The notes under the pieces: model-generated
Databases searched by the model: none
Told to the model about the DNA's origin: nothing
The model's input: only the letters and a program-made list of their open reading frames with translations
Origin: Adineta vaga
Lineage: Eukaryota > Animalia > Rotifera
NCBI GenBank assembly: GCA_021613535.1
Contig: CP075492.1
Coordinates: forward strand, 14,183,769 to 14,247,768
Direction of reading: 5' to 3'
DNA: 64,000 nt
Made by a program: the position numbers and the translations under genes
Shown here: positions 30,191-30,505 of the stretch, one piece after another
Numbering within the stretch: the first letter of the stretch is position 1
How the letters are laid out: every line of letters begins with the position of its first letter

Positions 30191-30505
30191 CTATTTTCCA
30201 CAGGACAAACCTGTTCCGAATGTAAGTGCGCCATTACAACACGTGTAGAACGATGGATTATAGGCTCTCGTACCACAACATGCTTGTCCGCTACCAAAAG
30301 TGAGTACACCATTGCAGCAGGTGTAGAATGATGGTTTGTAGGCTTTCGTATCACAACATGATTGTCCGCTACCAAAAGTGAGTACACCATTACAACACGT
30401 GTAAAATGATGGATTATAGGCTCCACAGGCAGCACCTTCAGCACTTAACCAAGATGAAACAGTAAGTAGGAAGATTAGAGCTAAAGTGGTCGACGATATA
30501 TACAT
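30191..30505 (-). CDS. Small secreted cysteine-rich protein: signal peptide plus 3 tandem copies of a 26-aa 6-Cys module 'YNPSFYTCCNGVLTFGSGQSCC'
   Basis: 104-aa ORF. Three near-identical 78-nt DNA repeats code the peptide repeats. The hydrophobic N-terminus 'MYISSTTLALIFLLTVSSWLSA' looks like a signal peptide. Confidence 0.55.
   Translation of the reverse strand: MYISSTTLALIFLLTVSSWLSAEGAACGAYNPSFYTCCNGVLTFGSGQSCCDTKAYKPSFYTCCNGVLTFGSGQACCGTRAYNPSFYTCCNGALTFGTGLSCGK

Follow-up and report, generated by a model that had tools for sequence, protein, structure and literature searches.

A small protein of the bdelloid rotifer Adineta vaga as a probable minimal member of the galaxin-like di-cysteine repeat family

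We analysed a 64,000-nucleotide stretch of the Adineta vaga genome (the window; GC about 30%) and an open reading frame within it, which very probably (at roughly 85%) encodes a minimal member of the galaxin-like di-cysteine repeat family, a single disulfide-stapled rod that is not cut into peptides. Judged from its sequence and its relatives, the ORF at 30191-30505 is an intact, genuine and conserved A. vaga gene, whose product is small, probably secreted, rich in Cys and built of tandem repeats. The initial annotation had read this ORF as a secreted precursor, and it does run from ATG to stop over exactly this interval of the minus strand, with 104 aa. In a search of 5.8 billion proteins, its product is 100% identical to the GenBank hypothetical protein I4U23_015412 of A. 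vaga (104 aa), and the PF24748 domain is precomputed for the protein record (P0001). The protein is therefore already in GenBank with its galaxin domain automatically assigned, and it is not a new family. From residue 1 to residue 104 the chain consists, in this order, of MYISSTTLALIFLLTVSSWLSAEGAACG, AYNPSFYTCCNGVLTFGSGQSCCDTK, AYKPSFYTCCNGVLTFGSGQACCGTR and AYNPSFYTCCNGALTFGTGLSCGK, followed by the stop. The positions of all features are presented in Table 1.

Table 1. Features of the galaxin-like gene of A. vaga, its neighbours in the window and related genes at other loci. Positions without a locus name are window positions.
Feature	Position	Strand	Basis or remark
Complete single-exon ORF, 104 codons plus stop	30191-30505	-	ATG start; stop TAG at 30191-30193
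Probable signal peptide, residues 1 to about 22	30440-30505	-	Hydrophobic core and lone helix; cleavage somewhere in residues 18-26
C27 codon, single N-terminal 'cap' cysteine	30425-30427	-	10 residues before the first CC; invariant in alignments A1-A3
Module 1, residues 29-54, AYNPSFYTCCNGVLTFGSGQSCCDTK	30344-30421	-	Two beta-hairpins, two CC pairs
Module 2, residues 55-80, AYKPSFYTCCNGVLTFGSGQACCGTR	30266-30343	-	88% nt identity to module 1
Module 3, truncated, residues 81-104, AYNPSFYTCCNGALTFGTGLSCGK	30194-30265	-	One CC pair and single C-terminal cap cysteine C102
78-nt x 3 tandem DNA repeat beneath the modules	30216-30449		Repeat search; TRF core 30231-30423
TATA-box-like TATATAA	30567-30573	-	68 nt upstream of ATG; consensus match only
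Alpha/beta hydrolase	7100-7942	-	Pfam or homology
ABC-2 transporter membrane domain	16839-17834	+	Pfam or homology
Aldo/keto reductase	27516-28304	+	Pfam or homology
Mpv17/PMP22-like, syntenic with A. ricciae	33376-33778	+	Pfam or homology
Stanniocalcin-family	42048-43088	-	Pfam or homology
Rhodopsin-type GPCR	44206-45192	-	Pfam or homology
NHL-repeat	55144-56076	+	Pfam or homology
A. ricciae orthologue gene	L001 10001-10315		
Thermoanaerobaculia (Acidobacteriota) galaxin-like gene	L007 6001-6324	+	140-kb contig, 62-72% GC
TonB-dependent receptor ORF near the bacterial galaxin-like gene	L007 7529-9940	-	1.2 kb away
Second Thermoanaerobaculia MAG galaxin-like gene, six or more modules	L008 199-700	+	

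The orthologue in Adineta ricciae is collinear with the A. vaga protein, has the same length (104 aa) and the same C-terminus (...CGK and stop), and is 66% identical; its UniRef label is 'Galaxin-like repeats domain-containing protein'. In the mature region dN between the two species is 0.126 and dS about 1.9 (saturated), with an omega of about 0.07 (Nei-Gojobori); by these rates, purifying selection on the A. vaga gene is strong. The signal-peptide region is far less constrained (dN 0.76 against A. ricciae). The two species also share a nearby Mpv17/PMP22 gene (window about 33376-33778 matching A. ricciae L001 3093-3493), which constitutes microsynteny. A short ORF in AT-rich DNA might be a spurious product of a non-coding tandem repeat, but an orthologue with identical length and ends at the above omega, a Pfam match above threshold and hundreds of relatives (674 at E≤1e-3) effectively refute this reading, which on these comparisons is excluded for practical purposes. 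A hidden intron restoring the terminal CC of module 3 (GTTTGT at the Gly-Leu codons) was also considered and rejected, since the A. ricciae gene has the same length and an identical ...CGK stop. Upstream of the ATG, a TATA-like box is found at 63-68 nt in both Adineta species (TATATAT at -63 in A. ricciae). No canonical A[AT]TAAA poly(A) signal is present up to 300 nt downstream in A. vaga or A. ricciae, and tblastn found no paralogues of the ORF in the window, where it is single copy. The protein P0003 was rejected as transcript support because its contigs are low-coverage metagenome nodes and not transcripts.

The ORF had been described as three tandem 26-aa, six-cysteine modules of about 90% DNA identity, and this description stands in part. 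The modules are in tandem and start at residues 29, 55 and 81 (AY[NK]PSFYTCC...); the third is only 24 aa long and ends in ...LSCGK and stop, with one Cys instead of the CC. Modules 1 and 2 carry four Cys each (two CC pairs) rather than six. Three in-register 78-nt copies are real at the DNA level, and in their core TRF reports a period of 78 with 2.5 copies, 86% matches and a score of 316, which is far above chance and the top repeat of the window (runner-up 110). The in-frame nt identities between modules are 88% (1 v 2), 74% (1 v 3) and 65% (2 v 3), and only the first of these approaches 90%. The (D/G)T(K/R)A linkers were described correctly and are present as DTK and GTR. Looking at the cysteines separately, the mature protein has 12, namely C27, CC at 37, 50, 63, 76 and 89, and C102; this is a C-(CC)x5-C pattern with an exact 13-residue period.

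Concerning the N-terminus, the signal peptide proposed earlier agrees with a hydrophobic core (ALIFLLTVS, residues 9-17, Kyte-Doolittle mean 2.58) and with an isolated helix modelled by AlphaFold2 at residues 6-23, and the assignment is a heuristic one. All short relatives are alike in having a hydrophobic N-terminus, which ends 3-6 residues ahead of the first conserved Cys. The A. vaga protein is thus probably secreted. The mature chain would comprise about 80 residues (about 8.4 kDa, pI about 8.0, net charge about +2, 15% Cys), including 12 Cys, 13 Gly and 12 Tyr/Phe, and the Tyr/Phe positions are conserved and periodic. The protein contains no dibasic sites (KR/RR), and no amphipathic or strongly cationic segment is found in its mature part.

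The Pfam family PF24748 (Galaxin_repeat) matches residues 26-95 with 50.7 bits against a curated cut-off of 28 (E 2.3e-13). Among 1.84 billion cluster representatives, HMMER found 674 relatives at E≤1e-3 and 245 at E≤1e-10, many of them long and multi-repeat. The named relatives include the green alga Edaphochlamys, sea urchins, Nematostella, Saccoglossus, Mytilus, the tubeworms Lamellibrachia and Ridgeia, and an ostracod. The relatives from the profile search with names also include NCBI 'galaxin-like' proteins of Mercenaria, Saccostrea and Octopus, a Porites protein, and proteins of the bdelloid Rotaria and the nematode Plectus; PF24748 is found in all 73 of these named relatives, as well as in each of the 23 short ones. 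By BLASTP the A. vaga protein is 41% identical to the Porites protein (E 2e-15) and 46% to the Mercenaria protein (E 2e-20). Since a clear match to a characterised Cys-rich family is what the initial annotation itself had named as its refutation, its reading as a candidate novel peptide family fails. Its remark that the Cys spacing differs from granulin, EGF, defensin and ICK patterns was borne out: no such Pfam family matches at E≤10, and the PDB structure search gave no granulin, EGF, defensin or knottin fold match for the protein.

Galaxins are described as secreted proteins of about 30-aa tandem repeats with two di-Cys motifs each (PMC2726143), and in calcarins and galaxins the di-Cys are 10-15 residues apart, with single Cys caps upstream and downstream (PMC12419799, 2025). 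The A. vaga protein consists of a signal peptide (assigned heuristically) followed by repeats only, with 26-aa CC...CC modules of which the third is truncated, and its di-Cys, spaced by 13 residues, are flanked by the single C27 and C102. It thereby has in common with the small mollusc, annelid and coral galaxin-like proteins of PF24748 and PANTHER PTHR34490 the signal peptide, the exclusive presence of tandem repeats of about 26-30 aa with two di-Cys each, the 10-15-residue CC spacing, the single-Cys caps and the predicted beta-hairpin ladder; its identity to named members is 41-61%. It differs in being among the smallest versions (5 di-Cys and about 80 mature residues) and in its rotifer host. 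Exactly C,(CC)5,C after a signal peptide is found in 17 of the 31 relatives of ≤125 aa, and other short relatives have the same single-Cys caps around two or three CC.

Some of the related sequences were observed in their own right. The closest named non-rotifer relative (57-63% identity) is a partial protein of Cyprideis torosa (P0009, 8-kb contig) with the ...LSCGK end of the Adineta proteins; the contig is short and could be rotifer contamination of the ostracod assembly. Two small galaxin-like genes of 101 and 72 aa, 1.1 kb apart, are found in freshwater metagenomes (L003 6001-6219 and L004 2015-2320 / 3431-3649) on eukaryotic contigs with 7tm_2, DHHC, BORCS6, Ras and MFS neighbours, so tandem mini-galaxin pairs recur outside Adineta. 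A bacterial origin of the loci of the metagenome relatives P0197 and P0174 was rejected because their neighbours (7tm_2, DHHC, BORCS6, Ras) are eukaryotic.

Based on an alignment of 23 sequences, AlphaFold2 gave a mean pLDDT of 76.9, with 85-89 over residues 31-90; this run was used instead of an earlier one on 5 sequences (pLDDT 62). Five hairpins are predicted (35-38/41-44, 49-51/54-56, 61-64/67-70, 75-77/80-82 and 87-90/93-96). In every one of them the CC ends the first strand, and the two-residue turns are NG or (D/G)T. AlphaFold models of galaxins and calcarins have the same arrangement, in which the di-Cys closes the first strand of a four-residue beta-hairpin with a two-residue turn; in these models the first Cys of a pair bonds the second Cys of the preceding hairpin, which results in a continuous disulfide backbone (PMC12419799). 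A Foldseek search of the PDB returned only insignificant matches (reovirus sigma1, TcdA repeats, glucansucrase repeats and C-LytA, all E>0.1), and a sequence profile search of the PDB found no experimental structure of any relative.

According to this model, the N-terminal signal peptide would direct the protein into the secretory pathway, and the mature chain would fold into five consecutive beta-hairpins of alternating ...FYTCC-NG-VLTF and ...QSCC-(D/G)T-KAY types. From the literature model we infer the exact disulfide map, a continuous ladder of six disulfides (C27-C37, C38-C50, C51-C63, C64-C76, C77-C89 and C90-C102). The single Cys at each end would leave no free thiol. The truncation of module 3 is then presumably not decay, as the chain would begin and end in the middle of a short hairpin and this lets all 12 Cys pair. 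The predicted end product is a single rigid, protease-resistant rod.

Concerning the fate of this product, the modules had also been proposed to be released as individual peptides, that is, proteolysis of a polyprotein at its (D/G)T(K/R)A linkers would yield three separate 26-aa peptides acting as toxins, antimicrobial peptides or adhesives. Tandem near-identical modules after a signal peptide, with K or R in both A. vaga linkers, are what such a precursor would have. The basic residue is not conserved, however: A. ricciae has GTT at both linkers (GTTA), and other relatives have GTQ (GTQA), GTV (GTVA), GSK or GNK. Neither conserved basic or dibasic sites nor modules that are self-contained in their cysteines, both of which mark processed precursors, are found in the A. 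vaga protein, and module 3 alone has an odd number of Cys (3). Also, the conserved single-Cys caps and the published ladder imply disulfides between modules; if the C-(CC)n-C ladder holds, it ties the modules covalently, and cleavage at the linkers would not release them, as the pieces would stay joined. The ladder model and the non-conserved monobasic linkers together argue against processing into 26-aa peptides, which we regard as very unlikely, and a stapled continuous ladder would make one rod and not a polyprotein.

With regard to function, we know of no single established role for galaxin-like proteins. Provided that the fold is right, the role that appears most likely, at slightly below even odds, is that of an extracellular binding or scaffold protein acting through its conserved aromatics (12 Tyr/Phe), which recur at regular distances. 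The protein would then attach to a surface of glycan or matrix, for example to a polysaccharide of microbial or fungal walls or to chitinous or mucous material of the rotifer itself. The Pfam family PF10645 (Carb_bind), which we take to be the CBM52 beta-1,3-glucan-binding repeats of S. pombe Eng1, matches the A. vaga protein below its curated threshold (21.7 bits against a cut-off of 25), a weak similarity over about 45 residues and four Cys positions; sub-threshold matches are also found in 13 of the 23 short relatives (best E 1.7e-6). The Eng1 module has three repeats of about 50 aa, is required for the enzyme to act on insoluble glucan and to reach the septum, and is attached to a GH81 glucanase (PMC3627985), whereas the A. 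vaga protein stands alone.

The main alternative, possible but rather doubtful, is an antimicrobial or microbe-modulating effector like squid EsGal1, which, whole or after proteolysis, would inhibit or shape the bacteria or fungi encountered by the rotifer; the antimicrobial guess of the initial annotation parallels the hypothesis published for the squid galaxins (PMC12773714). The A. vaga protein belongs to the same repeat family and shares with EsGal1 and EsGal2 of Euprymna scolopes the secreted di-Cys tandem repeats and the non-mineralising context. Synthetic single repeats of both squid proteins inhibit bacterial growth, and the squid galaxins are expressed in symbiotic epithelia (PMC12773714). 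The EsGals are larger, however, with up to 7 repeats, and strongly cationic: the mature A. vaga protein has a net charge of only about +2 at a pI of about 8.0, against +5 to +21.5 in EsGal proteins (PMC12773714), which makes a classical cationic antimicrobial mechanism less likely. The lack of an amphipathic or strongly cationic segment and of conserved linker cleavage sites also speaks against this reading. Extremely unlikely is a biomineral matrix protein like the coral galaxins and sponge calcarins. Family membership favours it, as galaxins and calcarins sit in carbonate skeletons, and the repeat type and predicted fold are those of galaxin sensu stricto (skeletal organic matrix of Galaxea fascicularis and Acropora millepora) and of calcarins. 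The host is a bdelloid rotifer, however, and to our knowledge these animals do not calcify. With 5 di-Cys, the protein falls short of the 9 or more of galaxins and the 10-23 of calcarins. The coral galaxins are skeletal, acidic (pI about 4.5) and about 300 aa long and have a dibasic propeptide site, whereas the A. vaga protein has about 80 aa in its mature form, a pI of about 8 and no dibasic site, and is thus not a galaxin sensu stricto. Galaxin-like proteins are also common in non-calcifying organisms (PMC12419799), and the relatives found here include a green alga, Nematostella and a bacterium.

Bdelloid genomes carry many foreign genes, and an acquisition of the A. vaga gene from bacteria by horizontal transfer was weighed on this background. 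Prokaryotic genomes were scanned with the single protein P0068 as query. A Thermoanaerobaculia MAG encodes a collinear 107-aa protein that likewise consists of a signal peptide and a C,(CC)5,C chain and shares 47-52% identity with the A. vaga protein. The length (140 kb) and GC (62-72%) of its contig and the adjacent outer-membrane receptor, which is TonB-dependent, indicate that the gene is genuinely bacterial and not eukaryotic contamination. This match and the lack of introns in the A. vaga gene are in favour of a transfer. The closest named relatives are animals, however: Cyprideis (57-63%), Lamellibrachia (59-61%), Ridgeia (53%) and Mytilus (50-52%) all outscore the bacterial protein. The family is also broadly distributed among Metazoa, and short, repetitive sequences of this kind do not allow a reliable tree. 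We consider a transfer from bacteria quite improbable; vertical descent appears to be the economical view. A broader and still unlikely idea is that the proteins of about 100 aa with a signal peptide and C-(CC)5-C form a deeply conserved mini-galaxin subfamily of animals (rotifers, annelids and molluscs) and Thermoanaerobaculia, linked to fungal CBM52 and acting as free-standing lectins for microbial or chitinous polysaccharides. If this were true, the 47-52% identity of the rotifer and bacterial proteins would be accounted for by a transfer between kingdoms.

The modules themselves appear to be dynamic. Module 3 is orthologous between the two Adineta species (81% nt identity); the remaining module pairs between the species reach 62-74%. 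A. vaga modules 1 and 2 are equally far from A. ricciae modules 1 and 2 (72-74%), yet 88% identical to each other, which suggests gene conversion or recent re-duplication of the internal A. vaga modules (30266-30421). A. ricciae also has a tandem paralogue of four modules and 130 aa (L001 11692-12084), 1.4 kb downstream of the orthologue; its promoter region is near-identical, and the precomputed table lists no Pfam family for it. The module identities and this four-module paralogue indicate that duplication or homogenisation has acted on the internal modules within a short evolutionary time and has spared the capping ends.

Within the window, nothing connects the seven neighbouring genes of Table 1 functionally with the galaxin-like gene, and their arrangement does not suggest a gene cluster. 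An uninterrupted 609-aa ORF at 38498-40327 (minus strand) contains a right-handed beta-helix domain (Pfam PF13229, E 5.7e-16); it is long, intronless and of a type common in bacteria and fungi, and is a possible horizontally acquired gene. A degenerate TACTCCA-type repeat tract (52947-53360; periods 5, 11, 21 and 41; 67-93% matches) lies just upstream of an ankyrin-repeat ORF at 53788-55068.

The discovery value is small, in that the gene was known in GenBank and its domain had been assigned automatically. A literature search for galaxin and rotifer gave nothing relevant, and the family is not discussed for rotifers in the papers searched; the value of the finding is that it documents the galaxin-like family in bdelloid rotifers, as a first notice in rotifers. 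The protein would represent a near-minimal galaxin fold, in which about 80 residues make up five hairpins with six predicted disulfides. This small size makes it a convenient target for a first experimental galaxin structure and for disulfide mapping, none having been solved according to the PDB searches. The bacterial homologue and the sub-threshold CBM52 similarity provide a testable lead on the molecular function of galaxin-like proteins.
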